A stretch of DNA of 64,000 nt from Minisyncoccia bacterium (GTDB taxonomy: Bacteria; Patescibacteriota; Minisyncoccia; UBA6257; 2-01-FULL-56-20). The stretch is taken from assembly GCA_050008535.1 (NCBI GenBank), contig JBEKML010000001.1, positions 455,050-519,049 of the forward strand, read 5' to 3'. Below the pieces are notes generated by a model, which had not been told where the DNA came from, searched no databases, and worked only from the letters and a program-made list of their open reading frames with translations. Position numbers and translations under genes: made by a program. The stretch's first letter is position 1. Every line of letters begins with the position of its first letter. This document shows, one piece after another, positions 10,307 to 63,734 of this stretch.

Positions 10307-10356
10307 GACGTCGCCCTCTCACGGCGAAAACTCGGGTTCGAATCCCGATGGCGGTA
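10282..10356 (+). tRNA. tRNA-Glu (anticodon CTC)
   Basis: Close resemblance to canonical tRNA-Glu (GTCTAG...GGAC D arm, anticodon loop CTCTCAC, T arm CGGG-TTCGAAT-CCCG). Confidence 0.8.
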
Positions 10357-10361
10357 CAAAA

Positions 10362-10501
10362 GAAGGTGCTGTGGTATTTTTGAAGCCCACTTCGCGCGCT
10401 CCTGCGGCGCGCTCGTTAGTCCTCGGCCGTTCGCGGCCGAGAGGAAAACGGCCGGCCAAGCCGAACGGCCTGCGGGTCTTCAAAAATACCACAGCACCTT
10501 C
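10362..10501. ncRNA. About 140-nt palindromic multi-stem element (24-bp perfect outer stem enclosing three GC-rich sub-hairpins); candidate structured RNA or complex terminator
   Basis: Outer arm gaaggtgctgtggtatttttgaag / cttcaaaaataccacagcaccttc. Inner hairpins GCGCGC-TCCTGCG-GCGCGC, CCTCGGCCG-TTCG-CGGCCGAGG and a GGCCGG...CCGAACGGCC region. Confidence 0.4.
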
Positions 10502-10538
10502 CTTCGTGCTTTTCTATCAAGAGGTTCGAACGGGGGAT

Positions 10539-11299: not shown

Positions 11300-11328
11300 G
11301 AACATTTTTAACATGGTAAGATTTTAGT

Positions 11329-12105
11329 ATGAGGAAATTGGTGGTGGCGAACTGGAAGGAAAATCCGAAGAGCGAAAAGCAGGCGCTCGTTCTTTTTCGC
11401 GCGGTTGCAAAGATAAGACATCCGAAAAAGATTGAGGTGGCGGTCTGTCCGCCATTCATTTATCTGGAACGGATCGCGGAGATGCGGAAGCGTGGGAGGG
11501 GGCGCGTAATGCTCGGCGCGCAGGACGTGTTTTGGGAAGAGAAAGGCGCCTACACGAGCGAGGTGGGGCCCGCGATGCTCCGGTCGCTCGGCGTGCGGTA
11601 CGTGATCATCGGCCATTCGGAGCGGCGTCGGTGGCTCAAGGAGACCGACGCGATGATCAATAAAAAGATCAAACGTGCGCTTAGAGATGGTTTGCGTGCG
11701 ATCCTTTGCGTGGGTGAGTCGCTTTCGGTGCGAAGAAAGGGGGCCGCGGCCGCAAAAAAATTCGTTGAGGGACAGCTCGCAAAAGACCTGGCGGGGGTTT
11801 CGCGCGCAAAATTATCGCGTCTTGAGGTCGCTTATGAGCCGATCTGGGCCATCGGCACCGGCAGATACGATAGGCCGGAGGATGCCGTGGCGATGGCCGC
11901 CGTCATTAAAAATTTCTTAAAGAAAGCTTTTCGTTTCGCTCCCCGTGTGGTATATGGTGGTTCTGTGTCCAGCAAAAATATCCACAATTATGTACAATAT
12001 AAGGAAATAGATGGTGCCCTTGTCGGGGGCGCCAGCTTGCGCGCGGCGGAATTCAAAAAAATGGTCGTCGCCGTCGCGCGGACAGGAATAAAAAATAAAA
12101 AATAA
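11329..12105 (+). CDS. tpiA: Triosephosphate isomerase
   Basis: VVANWKEN start, IIGHSERR catalytic His region, AYEPIWAIGTG catalytic Glu loop. Confidence 0.92.
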   Translation: MRKLVVANWKENPKSEKQALVLFRAVAKIRHPKKIEVAVCPPFIYLERIAEMRKRGRGRVMLGAQDVFWEEKGAYTSEVGPAMLRSLGVRYVIIGHSERRRWLKETDAMINKKIKRALRDGLRAILCVGESLSVRRKGAAAAKKFVEGQLAKDLAGVSRAKLSRLEVAYEPIWAIGTGRYDRPEDAVAMAAVIKNFLKKAFRFAPRVVYGGSVSSKNIHNYVQYKEIDGALVGGASLRAAEFKKMVVAVARTGIKNKK

Positions 12106-57943: not shown

Positions 57944-59113
57944 ATGCCGATCGCCCTTGTTCTTAGCGTCCTTGTGCTGCAGATTCTTTTGATCTTTACC
58001 CATCTTGCGGTATATGCGGTCGCTGCGGCGGCATTCGGCATCGGCGGGCTGCTCTTTAAAACGATCTTTGTCGTTCTTGCGTTTACCTTTCTTTCCGCAT
58101 CGCTCCTGGCCCACGCTTACAAGGGGAAGTTCTTTGATTGGTATTATGCCGCCGCTGCTTACTGGTTCGGCCTCGTGAGCTTCCTTTTTGGGGGCGCCGT
58201 CGCGTTCTTTTTTATCGCAAAGGTGCTTTATTCTTTCAACTATTATGTTTCGCCGGCTCTTCTTGCGGGCGTTCTTTTTGGCTTTTCCTTTTTTCTTCAC
58301 CTTTATGGAACGTGGAAAAGCGGTCGGGCGGAGATCACGCGCATTGACATAGCCATGCCGGGTCTTCCCGAAGCATGGCGAACAAAGAAGATCGTTTTCG
58401 TAAGCGACTTTCACCTTGGGAAGGTGTGGCGAAGGGAATTCACGGAGAAAGTGGCGGGAAAGATCCGGGCGCTCGCACCCCACGCGGTTTTTATCGGCGG
58501 CGATCTCTACGACGGCGTTGCGTGCGATCTTAAAGACGTGATCGAGCCCCTGCGATCGCTCCGCCCTCCGCACGGCGTATATTTCATCACCGGCAACCAC
58601 GAATATTTCTTGTCGGATATCGCCCCGGCGCTTGCGGCCATCCGCAATGTCGGCATACGGATATTAGAAGACGAAAGGGTGGACATTGACGGCATTTCGG
58701 TGATCGGTGTGAGCGATAAGAGCGACAAAGATACCGCTCACCGCGAGGATCATTTCAGAAAAATACTCAATTTAAAGCGTTTGAAAACACGGAACCATGA
58801 AGAAAAACACTTTGAGAAAAGACTCAATGGAACGGGAGCGCAGGGGGACCAGCCGACTATTCTTTTGAAACACGAACCGGATTATCTTGAAATTGCGAAC
58901 GAGGCAGGCATCGCATTGGGACTTTTCGGTCACACGCATCACGGCCAAATATTTCCCCTCAACTATCTTACGTGGCGGATCTATCATGGTTTTGATTACG
59001 GATTGCATCGCGTGGGCAACATGCAGACCTATACCTCAAGCGGGGTGGGCACGTGGGGTCCGCCCTTGCGGCTCAACACAAAATCGGAGATCGTGTTGAT
59101 CACACTGCGGTAG
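57944..59113 (+). CDS. Membrane-anchored metallophosphoesterase (calcineurin-like, YkuE-type)
   Basis: Four N-terminal TM helices. Motifs VFVSDFHLG, GGDLYDG, ITGNHE, GHTHHGQ. Confidence 0.8.
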   Translation: MPIALVLSVLVLQILLIFTHLAVYAVAAAAFGIGGLLFKTIFVVLAFTFLSASLLAHAYKGKFFDWYYAAAAYWFGLVSFLFGGAVAFFFIAKVLYSFNYYVSPALLAGVLFGFSFFLHLYGTWKSGRAEITRIDIAMPGLPEAWRTKKIVFVSDFHLGKVWRREFTEKVAGKIRALAPHAVFIGGDLYDGVACDLKDVIEPLRSLRPPHGVYFITGNHEYFLSDIAPALAAIRNVGIRILEDERVDIDGISVIGVSDKSDKDTAHREDHFRKILNLKRLKTRNHEEKHFEKRLNGTGAQGDQPTILLKHEPDYLEIANEAGIALGLFGHTHHGQIFPLNYLTWRIYHGFDYGLHRVGNMQTYTSSGVGTWGPPLRLNTKSEIVLITLR

Positions 59114-59186
59114 CCACACACAAAACAAGTATTTGAAACGAGTACTCGGAAGGGCTCGTTTCAAATACTTGTTTTGTGTGTGGCTA
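59111..59186. terminator. Long perfect hairpin (32-bp stem, loop TACTCGGAAGGG) whose outer base pairs are the two convergent stop codons; copy 3 of the conserved-loop hairpin family
   Basis: tagccacacacaaaacaagtatttgaaacgag / ctcgtttcaaatacttgttttgtgtgtggcta. TAG 59111-59113 is the + gene stop and CTA 59184-59186 is the - gene stop. Confidence 0.7.
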
Positions 59187-59750
59187 CAGTTCGTTTATGT
59201 TTTTCTTCTTCGGATTCGGCGCGGACATGAGAAGTAGGAGTAGTACAAAGACGGTCAGGGACATCGTGGGGATTGTAACGTAGCCGTATTCTATGAAATA
59301 AATGATCGTGCAGCTCACGCCGGTTATGGAGCAGGGGACGATGGACGTCCCGCCGAACTGGATGAAGGTGTGATAGAGGGCGATGAGCGCGCCCACGCCC
59401 GAGAGGACGCTGCAATGCAAGCGCATATTTTCGTCTTTCTTGAGGAACGCGGTAAAGAGGAGGACGGTCTGCGGGTAGAGAAAGATCCGCTGCCACCAAC
59501 AGAGATCGCATGGCGCGAATCCGGCGATTGCCGAGTAGAACAAGCTGCCACCGGTCGCGGCGAGCGCGGCAAGGAACGAAAGAAAGATCGCCCGTTCGCC
59601 GAAAAAGTCGGCTATTTGTCTTCCCCGCCCGTGCCGCTTGAGCGGCGTCACGAGCAACAGGAGCAGTGCGACGGCAAAAATGTCGGCGAGAAGCGTAAAG
59701 AAAGAAAGAATATTGGTGATACTTTGAACAAAAGGGGTCATGTGCGCCAA
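59184..59750 (-). CDS. Disulfide bond formation protein B (DsbB/BdbC family)
   Basis: Four TM helices. CDLCWWQR first Cys pair. Second pair in the periplasmic loop (CSITGVSC). Confidence 0.68.
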   Translation of the reverse strand: MAHMTPFVQSITNILSFFTLLADIFAVALLLLLVTPLKRHGRGRQIADFFGERAIFLSFLAALAATGGSLFYSAIAGFAPCDLCWWQRIFLYPQTVLLFTAFLKKDENMRLHCSVLSGVGALIALYHTFIQFGGTSIVPCSITGVSCTIIYFIEYGYVTIPTMSLTVFVLLLLLMSAPNPKKKNINEL

Positions 59751-60209: not shown

Positions 60210-63200
60210 ATGATGTCGGTATTTTTTAGGATCATGCCCCAGACATTACGTAATAAGTTGATCTTCCCAGCGCTGCTGCTCCTGGGGTTTTTAGGAATTG
60301 CCTTGCCGTTTGTCTCCCATGCCGCGATCTACAACGCGACCAATCTTTTGGGGCAAGTGGATGTGAACAGCAACCCCATTTGGACCAAAAAGACAGCGAA
60401 CAACAGCCCCACCGCCCCCAACGCGCTCGGATTTAACTCCCCGCACAACGTGGCCGTGGATACCACGAATAGCCGCCTCTTTGTGTCCGACGACGGGAAC
60501 AACCGCATACTCGTGTTTCCTCTTGACGCGAACGGCAATCTCGTCTCAAGCACGCCCTCGTACGTTCTCGGTCAGGCAGACTTCGTCTCGAAGGCACTAG
60601 ACGCTACGCCGAGCGGGCTCTTTTCCCCTGAAAGCATCGCCTATGATTCAGCCAATGACCGCCTTTTTGTGGTCGACCGATTCCACAGCCGGGTGATGGT
60701 CTTTAATGTCGCGACATCGACCATTACAAACGGCGAGAACGCCCTCTTTGAACTTGGCCAGACAAACTTCACCTCAAGCACCGGGGCCACCGCCCAGAAC
60801 GGACTCAAGAATCCTGTCGGCGTGGCCTACGATTCAGTAAATTCCCGCCTTTTCATCAGCGACGCAGGCAACAACCGCGTGATGGCCTTCTCTGTCCCTG
60901 CGAACGCCACGAGCGGCGTGAACGGCGAGAATGCCCTCTTCGAACTCGGGCAGACGAACTTCGCTTCAAGCACCGCGACTACCACCGCGAGCGGCCTTAA
61001 TAGTCCTAACGGCACCGCCTATGACCCGACGAACAACCGCCTTTTTGTAGCCGACAAAACAAACAACCGCGTGATGTCCTTCACCGTCCCTGCCAATGCC
61101 ACGAGCGGCATCAATGGCGAGAACGCCGACTTTGTGCTTGGCCAGACGAACTTCACCTCAAGCACCGGGACCAGCACCCAGAGCGGACTCCACGGACCCG
61201 CAGGCATCTTCTATGACTCGGCGAACAACCGCCTTTTTGTTCCTGATTCTGTTACCAATGCCCGGGTTGTGTCCTTCACCGTCCCTGCCAATGCCACGAG
61301 CGGCATCAATGGCGAGAACGCCGACTTTGTGCTCGGCCAGATGAACTTCACCTCAAGCACAGCCTCTACCACCCAGAACAGACTTAATGGTCCCTCTGGC
61401 ACCGCCTATGACTCAACGAACAACCGCCTTTTTGTAGCCGACGCAGGCAACAACCGCGTGATGGCCTTCGCCGTCCCTGCGAACGCCACGAGTGGTGTGA
61501 ACGGCGAGAACGCCTCATTCGCCATCGGCCACTATGACCTATCCGGCGCGCTCGCGACGGCCTCCTTTGTGAATGGTATCGTGGACGACGGGTTTCTCGT
61601 CAATGCCCAAGGGTTCGACAGTTTGAGTAATACCGTTCTTGATACGATCAACCATCGTCTCTTTGTTTCAGATTCGTATTTAGATAATTTCCGTATTCTT
61701 GTTTTCCCCCTGGACAGCGCCAACAATATCACGACTACCACCGCCCAGTATGTCCTCGGCGCCTGCAATTTCACAACCGCCGGGAGCGGCGCCGTCACAT
61801 CGAGTACTTTTCAACAGTCCAATCTCGCTTACGACAGCGTAAATTCCCGCCTCTTTGTTTCGGATGGACACGATAACCGCGTCCTCGCCTTCAACGTAGC
61901 GACCTCTACCATCGCGAACTGCGAAGGAGCGACGTTCGTGCTCGGGCAGGCGGATTTCGTTTCAAATGGCTCTGCTGTCGCCCAGAACAAATTTCACGGG
62001 TCCGACGACGTTGATTACGATTCCGTAAATTCCCGCCTTTTCGTGGCCGACGAAACAAACAACCGCGTGATGGCTTTCAGCATCCCCGCGAATGCCACGA
62101 GCGGCATCAATGGCGAGAACGCCCTTTTTGAACTCGGTCAGACAAACTTCGTCACAAGCACCGCGGCCACCACCCAAAGCGGGCTCCATGCTCCTACCGG
62201 CGTGGCCTACGATTCGGTGAACGCCCGCCTTTTCGTTGATGACTCTGGCAACAGTCGCGTGATGATCTTTGCTGTCCCTTCGAATGCCACGAGTGGCGTG
62301 AACGGCGAGAACGCCCTCTTTGAGCTCGGCCAGACGAATTTCACCTCAAGCACCGCGGCCACCACACAGAGCGGGCTCAACAATACCGACGATGACACCT
62401 ATGATACAACGGGCAATCGGCTCTTTGTCGCTGACCACGACAACAATCGCGTGACGATCTTCACTGTCCCTGCGAACGCTACGAGCGGTTTCAATGGGGC
62501 GAACGCACAGAACAACATAGGCCAGGCTGCCTGGACCACCAATGCTTCCGGCACCAGCCAGAACGCGTTTATCGCGCCCGAGTCCTCCCACGCCTACGAC
62601 CCGGTCAACAACCGACTGTATATCTATGAGGCTAGTGGCTACCGTGTCCTCCAATTCAACTTCATCCACATCACGACCGCCTCGTTCCCCTCAAGCACGG
62701 TGGGCTTCGCATATTCCCAAACTATCGCTGTCACCTCCACCCAGGGAACCTCCCAGACCTACAGCATCGCCTCCGGCACATTACCCGCAGGATTGTCGTT
62801 GAACTCCGCAACAGGCCTCATCTCGGGCATACCCACGGTTGCTACGACGACCACCGTTACCATAGAAGCCGACGACAATTTTGATACCGGCCCCTTCTTT
62901 GACCTAGCGACGTATACCATGGGGAGCGTAAACGGGACGTCCTCTGCGCCCCAATCCCTCACGGCCTCATCAAGCGACACCCAGGTCTTCCTCGCCTGGA
63001 GCATTCCCGCCACGAACGGTGGCTCTGCCATCACCGATTACCTTCTTGAATACAAAGAAACGGCGAATCCTCTCTGGCGCAGTTTTGTCCATGCTGCCAC
63101 CACCTCCCTCTCTATTATCGTTACGGGCCTCACGAACAACACACCGTACGATTTCCGCGTTTCCGCCGTGAACAGCATTGGCACCTCTTCTCCTTCTTCC

Positions 63201-63734
63201 CTGGTCTCCGCCACGCCAGTTTTCCCCGCTCCCAATGCGACCGTCGGCGTCGGCGCGAGCTACGCGGCGCCGCCCGGCGGCGGTGGTTTGCCCACGCTCC
63301 TCGCAACCGCCCCCCTTGCGACCACCACCGTTTCCACCTCTTCTCTCCTTGCCCAGCTCCTCTCCCTCTATCAAACCCTGCGTGCACTGCAGCAACAGCT
63401 TGGCCTTCCCCTCACGCCCATCCCTGCCTATCTCATGAATCTGTCCACCAGCACCACCACTGCCCAAGCCATTTCCTCGTCCACCACCCCCTATCTCTTC
63501 TCCCGCAATCTCTCCCTCTGGAGCCGTGGCTCCGACGTCCAGGCCCTCCAGGAGTTCCTGATCCAACAAAACGCCGGCCCTGCCGCCGCACAGCTCAAAA
63601 CCCACGGCGCGACGACCGTCTTTGGCCCCCTCACCTACAACGCTCTCAGAGAATTCCAGAAGCACGCAGGCATCACCCCTGCGGCAGGGTACTTTGGCCC
63701 CAAGACCAGGGCGTATGTGAAGACGCGGTTGTAA
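60210..63734 (+). CDS. Giant secreted NHL-repeat (six-bladed beta-propeller type) protein with about 7 tandem 64-aa repeats, an FN3 domain and a C-terminal peptidoglycan-binding domain
   Basis: Signal peptide. Repeated NNRLFV(A/S)D and NNRVMAF NHL motifs. FN3 (LLEYKETANP...TPYDFRVSAVNSIG). C-terminal PG_binding_1 (DVQALQEFL...GYFGPKTRAYV). Confidence 0.75.
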   Translation: MMSVFFRIMPQTLRNKLIFPALLLLGFLGIALPFVSHAAIYNATNLLGQVDVNSNPIWTKKTANNSPTAPNALGFNSPHNVAVDTTNSRLFVSDDGNNRILVFPLDANGNLVSSTPSYVLGQADFVSKALDATPSGLFSPESIAYDSANDRLFVVDRFHSRVMVFNVATSTITNGENALFELGQTNFTSSTGATAQNGLKNPVGVAYDSVNSRLFISDAGNNRVMAFSVPANATSGVNGENALFELGQTNFASSTATTTASGLNSPNGTAYDPTNNRLFVADKTNNRVMSFTVPANATSGINGENADFVLGQTNFTSSTGTSTQSGLHGPAGIFYDSANNRLFVPDSVTNARVVSFTVPANATSGINGENADFVLGQMNFTSSTASTTQNRLNGPSGTAYDSTNNRLFVADAGNNRVMAFAVPANATSGVNGENASFAIGHYDLSGALATASFVNGIVDDGFLVNAQGFDSLSNTVLDTINHRLFVSDSYLDNFRILVFPLDSANNITTTTAQYVLGACNFTTAGSGAVTSSTFQQSNLAYDSVNSRLFVSDGHDNRVLAFNVATSTIANCEGATFVLGQADFVSNGSAVAQNKFHGSDDVDYDSVNSRLFVADETNNRVMAFSIPANATSGINGENALFELGQTNFVTSTAATTQSGLHAPTGVAYDSVNARLFVDDSGNSRVMIFAVPSNATSGVNGENALFELGQTNFTSSTAATTQSGLNNTDDDTYDTTGNRLFVADHDNNRVTIFTVPANATSGFNGANAQNNIGQAAWTTNASGTSQNAFIAPESSHAYDPVNNRLYIYEASGYRVLQFNFIHITTASFPSSTVGFAYSQTIAVTSTQGTSQTYSIASGTLPAGLSLNSATGLISGIPTVATTTTVTIEADDNFDTGPFFDLATYTMGSVNGTSSAPQSLTASSSDTQVFLAWSIPATNGGSAITDYLLEYKETANPLWRSFVHAATTSLSIIVTGLTNNTPYDFRVSAVNSIGTSSPSSLVSATPVFPAPNATVGVGASYAAPPGGGGLPTLLATAPLATTTVSTSSLLAQLLSLYQTLRALQQQLGLPLTPIPAYLMNLSTSTTTAQAISSSTTPYLFSRNLSLWSRGSDVQALQEFLIQQNAGPAAAQLKTHGATTVFGPLTYNALREFQKHAGITPAAGYFGPKTRAYVKTRL
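60640..62480. repeat. Intragenic tandem repeats, period about 192 bp, 7 or more copies with high identity
   Basis: Antisense ORFs at 60827, 61019, 61211 and 62207 translate to near-identical peptides spaced 192 nt apart. Repeated strings tcaccgtccctgccaatgccacgagcggcatcaatggcgagaacgcc. Confidence 0.8.

Follow-up and report, generated by a model that had tools for sequence, protein, structure and literature searches.

The paired USS and DUS sequences of Pasteurellaceae and Neisseria form perfect inverted repeats downstream of genes that double as terminators. In enterobacteria and pseudomonads, REP and BIME elements occur in hundreds of copies, often clustered, and owe their mobility to RAYT transposases; each REP is an imperfect palindrome of 20-40 nt whose stem is conserved throughout, with GTAG or GTGG as its 5' head and a loop that varies. 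REP hairpins have been proposed or shown to act as terminators and mRNA stabilisers, also between convergent genes (bioRxiv 10.64898/2026.03.23.713779), and bidirectional intrinsic terminators, like the hairpins described below, carry compensatory changes in their stems (PMC5381666). Template switching both makes and repairs perfect hairpins (PMC8794818).

The locus analysed here lies in a 64,000-nucleotide stretch of a Minisyncoccia genome (the window), in which two convergent genes end inside a single long hairpin. To our knowledge, transcription ending and tRNA maturation in the ultra-small, uncultivated CPR/Patescibacteria are almost wholly undescribed, and the literature on these bacteria yielded no description of such hairpins.

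A hairpin between two convergent genes

The metallophosphoesterase (MPE) gene on the + strand (57944..59113; 389 aa, Pfam Metallophos; ending ...ITLR*, with TAG at 59111-59113) and the DsbB-family gene on the - strand (59184..59750; 188 aa, Pfam DsbB; ending ...NEL*, with TAG read from CTA at 59184-59186) converge on a 70-nt gap, which is also given by independent gene calls on identical metagenome contigs. Between them stands the hairpin that we call copy 3, with a 5' arm at 59110..59142 (GTAGCCACACACAAAACAAGTATTTGAAACGAG) that includes the MPE stop codon, a 12-nt loop at 59143..59154 (TACTCGGAAGGG) and a U-rich 3' arm at 59155..59187 (CTCGTTTCAAATACTTGTTTTGTGTGTGGCTAC) that includes the CTA of the DsbB stop, all read on the + strand. 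By sequence reading and by a repeat finder alike, the two 33-nt arms are 100% complementary across the 12 nt between them. The initial annotation had located both stop codons correctly, as both open reading frames agree, and its picture of an intergenic region that is structured throughout, with zero spacer, is confirmed by the presence of both stops inside the stem. The stem it described is perfect as claimed, but 33 rather than 32 bp long, owing to an extra pair, G59110-C59187.

The predicted RNA fold has a free energy of -59.2 kcal/mol on the + strand and -56.6 kcal/mol on the - strand (z = -11.8 and -12.1, respectively), a stability matched by 0 of 200 shuffles; the arm sequence itself recurred in 0 of 100 shuffled windows, ruling out a chance origin. 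In the fold the loop can also shrink to 10 nt, closed by a U.G pair, and may contain a short inner helix of 2 bp. An assembly artefact is ruled out as well, because the identical hairpin lies inside contigs of three independent assemblies (L001-L003). Two Logan contigs end within the hairpin; palindromes of this sort break short-read assemblies.

That the two stop codons base-pair with each other, the point that the initial annotation put first, is true. Identical stops on opposite strands are always mutually complementary, so this pairing is almost automatic (P about 0.35 given the stop usage of this genome, in which TAG makes up only about 28% of stops). Most convergent gene pairs in the window, those with gaps of 6, 11 and 36 nt, have no hairpin.

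Copies, loop and placement of the hairpin family

The earlier suggestion that copy 3 belongs to a family was borne out, since the hairpins at 315-388 and 2531-2604 share its loop and apical stem. Copy 1 (315..388, + strand) has a 31-bp perfect stem and the loop TACTCAGAAGGG, and also lies between convergent genes: the TAG at 313-315 on the + strand provides its first paired G, and the HtrA-like gene on the - strand stops at 391-393. Copy 2 (2531..2604, + strand) again has a 31-bp perfect stem, with the loop TACTAAGAAGGG, and begins at the discriminator base of tRNA-Arg(CCT) (2460-2531); the tRNA cluster around it has been rearranged by inversions between the window and the related locus L015. 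A diverged relative at 4375..4445 on the - strand has 29-nt arms that are 93% complementary, CTAAGAAGG in its loop on that strand and an arm A/T polarity opposite to that of the family; it scores 36.5 bits (- strand) with our covariance model R1, which recovers exactly three full copies and this one diverged copy from the 64 kb.

Across related genomes the family comprises at least 29 distinct copies, all in MAGs of Patescibacteria (Minisyncoccia-type) and in peat metagenomes, with at least 11 within the fetched loci of a single MAG (MFD01476.bin.2.169). It is a multi-copy extragenic palindrome, found at a density of about one per 16-70 kb, and orthologous sites were seen both with and without the element. 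Copies are single, yet two stand back to back in L084. The loop, TACTNNGAAGGG, is invariant at 10 of 12 positions in the 29 aligned copies and is strand-specific, and an apical stem of approximately TTTGGAAGGAG is common to the copies, with a species-specific consensus (GAAACGAG in the species of the window, GGAAGGAG in MFD01476). The outer 8-15 bp are unrelated between copies, even in one genome. Stems are 25-33 bp long and nearly mismatch-free. Among the hairpins listed from about 200 kb of these genomes, 23 are perfect over 16 bp or more, and all but one of these (22) have the family loop. The family is specific to a Patescibacteria lineage (Minisyncoccia/Paceibacteria-type, from peat and soil) and consists of terminator-shaped palindromes of about 75 nt.

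Several candidate identities could be dismissed on these data. At gathering score, Rfam returned only tRNAs over the window and left the hairpins unmatched; at E<=1, the hairpins of five related loci matched only microRNA-precursor models below threshold, as generic long hairpins do. A scan of viral contigs gave four matches, all stemless, and BLAST against phage records gave none, leading us to reject a viral origin. A likeness to the GGAA tetraloop of SRP RNA fails with AGAA in two thirds of the copies and no Rfam SRP match, and mimicry of the SD/anti-SD pair by the apical stem (GGAAGGAG/CUCCUUCC) fails for the window variant GAAACGAG. TIGR or CRISPR-like arrays are excluded by copies that are single and not tandem, and a DNA uptake signal by a density that is far too low.

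Eleven copies lie in sense orientation 0-8 nt after a tRNA and one lies antisense; at 11 loci the hairpin starts at or beside the discriminator base, and these tRNA genes have no encoded CCA. Six copies begin no more than 3 nt after a stop codon. Convergent genes flank copies 1 and 3 and those at L065, L079, L115, L117 and L119, and in 6 of these 7 pairs the sense-side stop lies within about 6 nt of the edge of the extended stem, somewhere between 6 nt within the stem and 3 nt short of it. One copy stands between divergent genes (L114), and two or three are antisense within tandem gene pairs. Taken together, the sequences show copies that directly abut tRNA and gene 3' ends, with one orientation preferred. 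Duplicated tRNA 3' ends adjoin some copies (L015, L083).

The arms are polarised: whichever strand is read, the 5' arm is rich in A and the 3' arm in U. Purines make up 69% of the 5' arms, and 25 of the 29 copies have more A than T there. In roughly half of the family a T-run begins 15-16 nt past the loop, a position at which copy 1 has none. Promoter-like sites occur 3' of the hairpin in two tandem contexts, and at four loci the hairpin is succeeded, ahead of the next promoter, by a structured region that is itself conserved. The structured element beside some copies is tRNA-linked and tRNA-mimicking; tmRNA, RNase P RNA, a group I intron and a Y-RNA-like RNA were each considered for this region and found no ARAGORN or Rfam support. 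In practical terms, model R1, with its loop UACUNNGAAGGG, offers a searchable mark of the 3' ends of tRNAs and convergent genes, and the family signal can be checked directly in existing peat metatranscriptomes.

Paired changes in the stem and fixed gene ends

Pairing has been maintained while the stem sequence changed. In the family alignment 96.8% of the cells are paired, as compared with 31-59% in slid controls, and double changes occur at 21 of 24 pairs; none of 500 shuffles reached the observed values. G.U pairs are not enriched (6 cells, against 22 mismatches). Orthologous hairpins give the same picture, with 6 double changes and 1 single change between copy 3 and L119, and 5 double and no single changes between L083 and L110, or 11 double changes against 1 single overall, transversion pairs included. 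These comparisons indicate a stem that evolves through paired changes in both arms, on a strictly Watson-Crick basis. We rejected the idea that the outer arms arose as inverted duplicates of the sequence beside them: in copies 1 and 3 they resemble their flanks, and the orthologous loci that have no hairpin, no more than shuffled sequences do. A long hairpin that stays Watson-Crick over substantial divergence bears on the relative roles of selection and template switching in compensatory evolution.

The hairpin after the MPE gene is present in the window, L108 (98%), L127 (80%) and L119 (76%), and absent from L120 (70%), L128 (64%), L129 (61%), L121 (59%) and L122 (57%); the genomes of L121 and L122 have family copies elsewhere (L021 and L083). 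In the five relatives without it, the MPE and DsbB stops are 5-20 nt apart or overlap. Across 8 orthologous loci, 3 with the hairpin and 5 without, both C-termini (...ITLR* and ...EL*) are constant, and both proteins flanking copy 1 likewise have the same ends whether or not the hairpin is there. Since the protein ends are the same in either case, the element was gained between fixed ends and did not define them. This refutes the proposal that it defines the gene ends, and the comparison of ortholog C-termini suggested with that proposal revealed no stop position shifted to accommodate the hairpin. The distribution further shows a single insertion of the copy 3 element, in the ancestor from which the window, L127 and L119 descend, followed by retention; the element entered a gap of 0-20 nt between MPE and DsbB ends that were fixed beforehand.

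The MPE stop codon itself reads TAG in two loci with the hairpin (the window and L119) and TAA in three without it (L120-L122), with the third base alone changed; in L127 the hairpin lies about 11 nt from a TGA stop. The added pairing in the stop region came from two selectively neutral MPE-side changes (CGA/CGC to CGG and TAA to TAG), opposite which the DsbB side has the ancestral CTAC. For annotation, the locus is a caution: finding stop codons inside a stem is no sign that the element created the ends of the genes.

The terminator reading, its alternatives and the closest known systems

We read copy 3 as a REP-like repeated palindrome that is a candidate bidirectional terminator and 3'-end hairpin, and hold this with moderate confidence. 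Polymerase coming from either gene would transcribe the same stem, because a perfect palindrome has identical arms on either strand. With an A-rich 5' arm and a U-rich 3' arm (...CUUGUUUUGUGUGUGG), a nascent hairpin followed by a U-rich stretch could stop or slow transcription, and the hairpin left at the 3' terminus would shield each mRNA, or tRNA precursor, from 3' exonucleases; thus one element could serve both convergent genes. Two influences may keep the pairing perfect: Watson-Crick pairs are the only ones that serve on both strands, and template switching may correct one arm from the other. Template switching could also have lengthened the stem into the stop codons via the two neutral substitutions. 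New copies would arise by some copy-and-insert process, as in REP-like elements, and the strand-specific, conserved 12-nt loop probably binds a trans-acting factor.

The initial annotation had likewise proposed a bidirectional terminator. That proposal fits the anatomy, the 3'-end contexts, the arm polarity and the Watson-Crick-only pairing: a stable stem-loop (about -57 to -59 kcal/mol) lies immediately downstream of the gene or RNA gene, and complementary A- and U-rich flanks lie between convergent genes. It fits less well in lacking a U-tract outside the full stem, which is followed by AGUUCGUUUAUG on the + strand and CGCAGUGUGAUC on the - strand; a search past the stem for about 5 or more U in 8 nt found none in AGUUCGUU (+) or CGCAGUGU (-). 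The U-rich run UUUUGUGUGUGG lies in the 3' arm, after the inner 17-bp stem, so termination would need the inner ~17 bp alone as the terminator hairpin. The 12-nt loop and the GC content of 38% (central 60 nt) depart from the short loop (3-8 nt) and GC-rich stem expected of a terminator, and a consensus terminator scanner did not flag the family hairpins. The structured region ahead of the next promoter at four loci argues against complete termination there. Five orthologous MPE/DsbB junctions and most convergent gene pairs of the window manage with no hairpin, copy 1 has no T-run where one is expected, one copy stands between divergent genes and two or three are antisense in tandem pairs, and RNase III should cleave a perfect RNA duplex of this length (over 30 bp); all of these points count against a terminator. 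Nor does a terminator role explain the invariant, strand-specific loop.

The loop (UACUNNGAAGGG) on its hypervariable perfect stem could, we suggest tentatively, be the signal for a trans-acting factor, either a 3'-end or tRNA-processing protein or an enzyme that copies and inserts the element. If so, the family would represent a new kind of mobile terminator module, oriented and directed at 3' ends, which may be linked to the tRNA-mimicking structured element beside some copies.

It seems unlikely that the family is instead a selfish mobile palindrome of REP/MITE-like type that does nothing for its host and whose terminator look is incidental or merely tolerated. An enzyme, for example a transposase, would recognise single-stranded DNA by its loop and apical stem and insert copies, and survivors would be found only in short non-coding gaps at gene and tRNA ends. 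Presence that varies at orthologous sites between constant gene ends is what such an element would give, and a conserved loop is the sort of feature that enzymes read; the species-specific apical stem suggests spread or homogenisation within genomes, and the copies between divergent genes and back to back (L084) also fit. However, the outer stems are unrelated within a genome and the young copy 3 is like no other, unlike copy-and-paste repeats, while the 11:1 orientation bias and the A-to-U polarity imply constraint beyond tolerance, as does the survival of the element, its changes compensated, while the proteins diverged by 20% or more. The viral contigs and phage records searched yielded no copies. 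Copy 3 and L079 resemble G-TA-[GC...GC]-TA-C, which is compatible with TA target duplication, but a mariner/MITE-type duplication into overlapping stops (CTAA) fits these two only. TA...TA is missing from copy 1, copy 2, L117 and all tRNA-adjacent copies, and the family does not show the terminal inverted repeats with direct target-site duplication of a MITE.

A processing site for RNase III, cutting more than 30 bp of dsRNA after transcription, is a rather improbable primary role as judged from the sequences. Cleavage would free tRNA 3' ends for trimming and set the 3' ends and decay rate of flanking mRNAs, with the conserved loop placing the enzyme or a cofactor, much as AGNN loops position yeast Rnt1p. 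Copy 3, at 33 perfect bp, exceeds the ~20 bp or more of uninterrupted dsRNA that makes a substrate, and almost mismatch-free stems of 25-33 bp exceed what a terminator needs. Also in favour are the strand-specific invariant loop, the 11 loci with a hairpin at or beside the discriminator base of tRNA genes with no encoded CCA, and the four loci where it lies between a tRNA and a promoterless, structured RNA-like region, which fits co-transcription and cleavage. Yet bacterial RNase III is not known to need a particular loop, this role leaves the A-rich/U-rich arm polarity unaccounted for, and missing G.U pairs are not required if RNA is processed on one strand only.

A site acting at the DNA level, with a protein such as a site-specific recombinase, nucleoid protein or replication-related factor on a cruciform or duplex palindrome, is very improbable. 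Strictly Watson-Crick pairing with no G.U excess is what DNA palindromes would show, tRNA 3' ends are classic integration targets (with duplicates at L015 and L083), and the tRNA cluster of copy 2 is rearranged by inversions between the window and L015. Against this, a duplex site would not be expected to show an 11:1 bias relative to the transcribed strand of the tRNA or a purine/pyrimidine polarity, a palindromic duplex needs no asymmetric loop, and no recombinase lies beside any copy examined. Finally, that the hairpin supplied or shifted both stop codons, for which one could cite the stops inside the stems, the TAG/TAA difference at the MPE gene and the TAG of all flush sense-side genes at copies 1 and 3, L079 and L117 (against a background of about 28%), is next to untenable given the same end residues in 8 of 8 orthologous loci and both copy 1 genes, an MPE stop that differs at its third base only and the offset hairpin of L127.

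Returning to the candidate terminator, how the family compares with the systems described at the outset can be stated for each in turn. Hairpins shaped by template switching, known from quasipalindrome correction (PMC8794818), share its perfect stems and multi-base, transversion-including 'compensatory' changes, and also a palindrome that spreads into flanking neutral sites and a loop that is occasionally inverted (here, the antisense copies); template switching is, however, a mutational mechanism and not a functional class, and explains the pairing but not the loop or the 3'-end placement. Like USS and DUS, the family presents a conserved repeat as a perfect inverted repeat downstream of genes, but those sequences are conserved in the stem, number about 1000 or more per genome, mostly stand singly rather than in pairs and serve DNA uptake, whereas the family conserves an asymmetric loop and its copies are far too rare for uptake signals. 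With REP and BIME elements it shares repeated palindromes in 3' untranslated and convergent intergenic regions, whose presence differs among related genomes with the genes unchanged. Unlike them, it conserves the loop and apical stem, its outer stem is copy-specific and perfect, and its copies are single, at about one per 16-70 kb; the GTAG head occurs in three copies only (copy 3, L079 and L119), in which the stop codon upstream accounts for it, and does not place the family among REPs. Intrinsic terminators differ in their stems (typically 5-15 bp, against an AT-rich 31-33 bp) and in their loops (3-5 nt and free to vary, against an invariant 12 nt), and the family has no U-tract beyond its full stem and a shared apical module in place of independent origins. 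With bidirectional intrinsic terminators it nevertheless shares a hairpin in the gap of convergent genes, often abutting or overlapping the stops in compact genomes, and complementary A-rich 5' and U-rich 3' sides that form the same structure on either strand.

A perfect hairpin between two convergent genes

The gap between the + strand metallophosphoesterase (MPE) gene (57944..59113; 389 aa, Pfam Metallophos, TAG at 59111-59113) and the convergent - strand gene for a DsbB-family protein (59184..59750; 188 aa, Pfam DsbB, TAG read from CTA at 59184-59186) is occupied by a single hairpin, referred to here as copy 3. Reading of the sequence at 58900-59400, together with an inverted-repeat search, gave arms of 33 nt each (59110-59142 and 59155-59187) that are 100% complementary and enclose a 12-nt loop, TACTCGGAAGGG. 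This bears out the initial annotation, which placed both stop codons within the stem with no spacer, except that one extra pair, G59110-C59187, lies beyond those it took to be outermost. Gene calling on identical public contigs agrees on both genes and on the 70-nt gap. The RNA is predicted to fold with -59.2 kcal/mol on the + strand and -56.6 kcal/mol on the - strand (z about -12; equally stable shuffles, 0/200).

Since the same sequence is internal to contigs of three independent assemblies (L001-L003), copy 3 is real. Two short-read Logan contigs of this locus (L004 and L005) both stop 26 nt past the MPE stop, inside the 5' arm, as is expected of a long palindrome. Long perfect palindromes of this kind break de Bruijn-graph assemblies, and they may be under-represented in short-read MAGs. 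Further along the window, 60210-63734 encodes a secreted-looking protein of 1174 aa in which many NHL/SGL-type beta-propeller repeats are combined with fibronectin type III domains and, at the C-terminus, a peptidoglycan-binding domain; the internal DNA repeats of this gene give rise to repeated antisense ORFs and repeated terminator-like scanner matches (61115, 61310).

Hairpin gain and gene ends at orthologous junctions

To place copy 3 in an evolutionary context, the MPE/DsbB junction was gathered from eight further loci. The hairpin is identical in L108 (98% MPE identity), lies ~11 nt past a TGA stop as a family hairpin in L127 (80%), and is clearly orthologous and flush with TAG in L119 (76%). 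The remaining five junctions have no hairpin: the stops overlap (CTAA) in L120 (70%), and the genes are separated by 5 nt in L128 (64%), 20 nt in L129 (61%) and 8 nt in both L121 (59%) and L122 (57%). The simplest history is that copy 3 was gained once, in the ancestor of the window/L127/L119 lineage, and retained. The source genomes of the hairpin-less L121 and L122 have family copies elsewhere (loci L021 and L083), so the family is older than the MPE/DsbB insertion. In L119, a TIG-domain gene (11302-11760) has additionally been inserted between dsbB and the orthologous hairpin.

Comparison of ortholog C-termini, a check that the initial annotation had proposed, refutes the idea that gene ends are defined by the element: the stop positions have not moved to fit the hairpin. 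The translated MPE terminates in ...EIV[LC]ITLR* in the window and in L119-L122, with or without a hairpin; L127, a long-read assembly in which genes are split, reads ...ITLH* with TGA. The DsbB C-terminus is ...[NL]EL* at each of the five loci checked. At the site of a second hairpin in the window (copy 1, below), the related locus L015 (HtrA 86% identical) has its two genes 20 nt apart with no hairpin, and the terminal residues of both (...Y[ST]Y*, ...LAERK*) are those seen in the window.

The stop codons of copy 3 do pair with each other, but this is a near-automatic by-product. A stop codon is always complementary to the same stop on the opposite strand, so that a palindrome lying exactly between two stops will pair them whenever both genes use the same one. 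From stop usage in a rough ORF set of the window (TAA 25, TGA 17, TAG 16), the probability of a shared stop is ~0.35, and that of an additional G-C pair ~0.25. The CTAC on the DsbB side is also present in L121 and is thus ancestral. On the MPE side, the hairpin-less L120-L122 read CGA/CGC TAA, versus CGG TAG in the hairpin-bearing window and L119; these two changes are selectively neutral and lengthen the stem by two pairs, as expected of templated palindrome extension or of selection for a longer stem, where coding permits. In the four independent flush copies (copies 1 and 3, and those in L079 and L117) the sense-side stop is TAG and the stem starts at or before its G, an excess that is suggestive in this small sample (TAG makes up ~28% of stops; ~0.006 for four).

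A lineage-restricted family with an invariant loop

The claim that copy 3 belongs to a hairpin family is upheld, as two further hairpins in the window share its 12-nt loop and loop-proximal stem in the same orientation. Copy 1 (315-388; loop TACTCAGAAGGG) lies between a + strand gene (TAG 313-315) and an HtrA-like - strand gene ending at 391-393, and copy 2 (2531-2604; loop TACTAAGAAGGG) starts on the discriminator base of tRNA-Arg(CCT). A scan for GAGTACTNNGAAGGGCTC in one genome per species returned at least ~110 matches, mostly isolated chance ones. In the loci examined, and excluding the three window copies, at least 18 matches cap a stem of 15-34 bp; among the matches listed, these occur in four small-genome MAGs only, namely "uncultured bacterium" MFD01476.bin.2.169, Minisyncoccia SPRUCE 501, MFD03726.bin.c.4 (899-kb chromosome) and a MAG that its submitter labelled Saccharibacteria. 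A stricter pattern found just 12 metagenome loci, nearly all from one JGI peat metagenome series (Ga0187...) that is also the source of the window's own contigs, and one of the 12 is matched by a SPRUCE-named MAG. The best named relatives of the proteins flanking family copies are Minisyncoccia/Paceibacterota (Minisyncoccia being a class within the phylum Minisyncoccota).

Removal of duplicates left 29 distinct copies, to which L127 later added two. The loop reads TACT-[CG/CA/AA]-GAAGGG, with 10 of its 12 positions invariant. The apical stem approximates TTTG-GAAGGAG/CTCCTTC-CAAA, the adjoining positions are frequently AAAGGGG/CCCCTTT, and the outer 8-15 bp vary between copies. Among perfect hairpins of at least 16 bp listed in ~200 kb of related loci, 22 of 23 have the family loop in either orientation. 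A covariance model made from the 29 aligned copies, run on the window, recovered exactly three full copies (77-81 bits). No Rfam family matches the hairpins of the window and related loci, and a full-text literature search did not find such hairpins described in Patescibacteria. The family is an undescribed repeat of terminator-like shape, restricted to one lineage and with a conserved loop as yet unexplained.

Several related structures were also observed. The covariance model has a weaker match at 4380-4440 (36.5 bits, better on the - strand), within a hairpin at 4375-4445 that sits between a gene stop (4353-4355) and tRNA-Val (4450). It has 29-nt arms that are 93% complementary (dG -54.6), with A/T polarity opposite to that of the family (5' arm CCCTTTTG), and its loop, read on the - strand, contains CTAAGAAGG, 9 nt in common with the copy 2 loop; it is probably a diverged or loop-inverted family relative. 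A 31-bp perfect hairpin in L119 (9472-9544) has a family-like apical stem (TTTTGAAAGCAG) and an unrelated 11-nt loop (CAAATCTCTAA). In locus L084, two copies with imperfect apical stems (3551-3596 and 3638-3703) stand back to back in opposite orientations, ~40 nt apart.

Pairing within the family is conserved and of the Watson-Crick kind. In the ungapped alignment of 29 copies, standard pairs fill 96.8% of 696 cells, as compared with 31-59% in controls with the partner shifted by 1-3 columns, and changes on both sides are present at 21 of 24 stem pairs, values reached by 0/500 shuffles. The ratio of G.U cells to unpaired cells (6 versus 22) is near the ~2:10 expected for random departures from Watson-Crick pairing, indicating that wobble is not favoured, unlike in RNAs selected on one strand. 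Between copy 3 and its L119 ortholog, 6 stem positions changed on both arms and 1 on one arm (G.T); between the tRNA-Glu hairpins of L083 and L110 these counts are 5 and 0. Several of the orthologous double changes are transversion pairs (C-G to A-T, T-A to G-C), for which no wobble intermediate is possible. Such strict pairing fits use on both strands, template-switch correction, or both, as the two are non-exclusive. A hairpin used on both strands tolerates Watson-Crick pairs only, since wherever one strand forms a G.U the other is left with a C.A mismatch; template switching, the arm-to-arm templated correction of palindromes, creates, repairs and extends perfect hairpins (PMC8794818).

Placement at 3' ends and possible roles

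Copies were scored as sense when the loop orientation matches the transcribed strand of the adjoining gene or tRNA. Of the 29, 11 follow a tRNA in the sense orientation at a distance of 0-8 nt (two Arg, three Glu, and one each of Ile, Val, Ala, Gln, Lys and Pro), and a further copy comes after a tRNA-Arg 3' end that is duplicated and displaced; a single tRNA-linked copy (L069) is antisense. CCA is not encoded in the adjoining tRNA genes. Convergent protein genes flank seven copies, 6 of which have the sense-side stop no more than ~6 nt from the edge of the extended stem (6 nt inside to 3 nt before), with the other gene ending up to 75 nt past the opposite edge. Tandem gene pairs account for two sense copies, a third in L127, and two or three antisense copies, and one copy (L114) is between divergent genes, for a sigma factor and a SemiSWEET-like protein. 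A scan for sigma-70-like promoters flagged good candidates past the hairpin in two tandem contexts, L011 (11/12, TG extension) and L015 (9/12), and none past copy 2 or in L021.

Other structures also occur beside tRNA genes. Nine nucleotides past copy 2, GAGGAATTG (2612-2620) matches the T-arm of the preceding tRNA-Arg (2514-2522) in reverse complement, and the intervening stretch can pair, mostly by G.U, with the tRNA acceptor 3' strand. This arrangement also follows tRNA-adjacent copies in L011, L021, L078, L083, L109 and L110. In four of the related loci, L083 (3661-3826), L110 (5491-5652), L021 (1086-1245) and L078 (3260-3425), the tRNA, the family hairpin and the short inverted T-arm copy are followed by a conserved stretch of ~130 nt. 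This region is GC-rich, its four hairpins form a multi-helix junction, and it has a closing helix that mimics the acceptor and T stems of the neighbouring tRNA; it terminates in a 16-20-nt direct repeat of the tRNA 3' end. It has compensatory changes at 16 of 51 predicted pairs, has no Rfam or ARAGORN matches, is absent from the window, and could represent either a non-coding RNA resembling tRNA or a miniature element that integrates at the 3' ends of tRNAs. Flush with the 3' end of tRNA-Glu(CTC), a 152-nt structure (10356-10507) has 33-nt arms (91% complementary) that contain a family-like TTTTTGAAG motif and enclose 86 nt in which three GC-rich hairpins form (dG -94.9, z -8.9); its appearance is that of a family-type stem with an insert in place of the tip. 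In L015 (3696-3920), an insert of ~84 nt with a canonical-looking terminator (GAAAAAAGAGAGGC-GCA-GCCTCTCTTTTTTC) parts the copy 2 ortholog from tRNA-Arg(CCT) and is followed by an 18-nt duplicate of the tRNA 3' end that directly abuts the family hairpin; this looks like the scar of integration at a tRNA 3' end. Five tRNA genes (Ser-CGA, Arg-CCT, Ala-GGC, Ser-TGA and Val-CAC) are common to the window (2269-4523) and L015 (2430-6180), and their differing order and orientation around tRNA-Arg and its hairpin implies local inversions in this palindrome-rich region.

Judging from sequence, the family is most likely a repeated REP-like palindrome that would act as a putative transcription stop and stabilising 3'-end hairpin for a gene or tRNA from either side; at copy 3, one structure would serve both convergent genes. 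Purines make up 69% of the 5' arms (A 298, G 280, T 132, C 128), with A exceeding T in 25 of 29 copies, and a run of 3-5 T begins 15-16 nt past the loop in about half of the copies. The resulting layout (A-tract, ~15-bp stem, then U-rich 3' side) is that of a bidirectional intrinsic terminator, and as the stem is a palindrome, the polarity is the same in transcripts of either strand. The initial reading of copy 3 as an economical bidirectional terminator is plausible and better grounded than before, if short of proof. Against it, the stem is AT-rich, the loop long and no U-tract lies beyond the full stem; most convergent junctions, as well as the five orthologous ones, do without the element; one copy is between divergent genes; and termination leaves the invariant, strand-specific loop unaccounted for. 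This loop, the most unusual feature of the family, points to a trans-acting factor, either a processing or termination protein or an enzyme that spreads the element, potentially by copying and insertion.

Processing by RNase III, above all at tRNA 3' trailers, is a serious rival or additional role, as perfect dsRNA of more than 30 bp should be a substrate of this enzyme. Less likely readings are an element that is purely selfish and a site acting at the DNA level. A MITE was rejected, there being no general target duplication, as were a known Rfam family (no match), a DNA uptake signal and an array repeat.

Of the known systems, bidirectional intrinsic terminators would work alike, but they usually have a short loop and a GC-rich stem, unlike this hairpin, and a U-tract after the full stem, where copy 3 has its U-rich run inside the 3' arm. 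REP elements differ in their defining GTAG head and whole-stem conservation, both absent here, and no RAYT is linked to this family; on the other hand, they resemble it in being repeated extragenic palindromes at 3' ends whose presence is variable.
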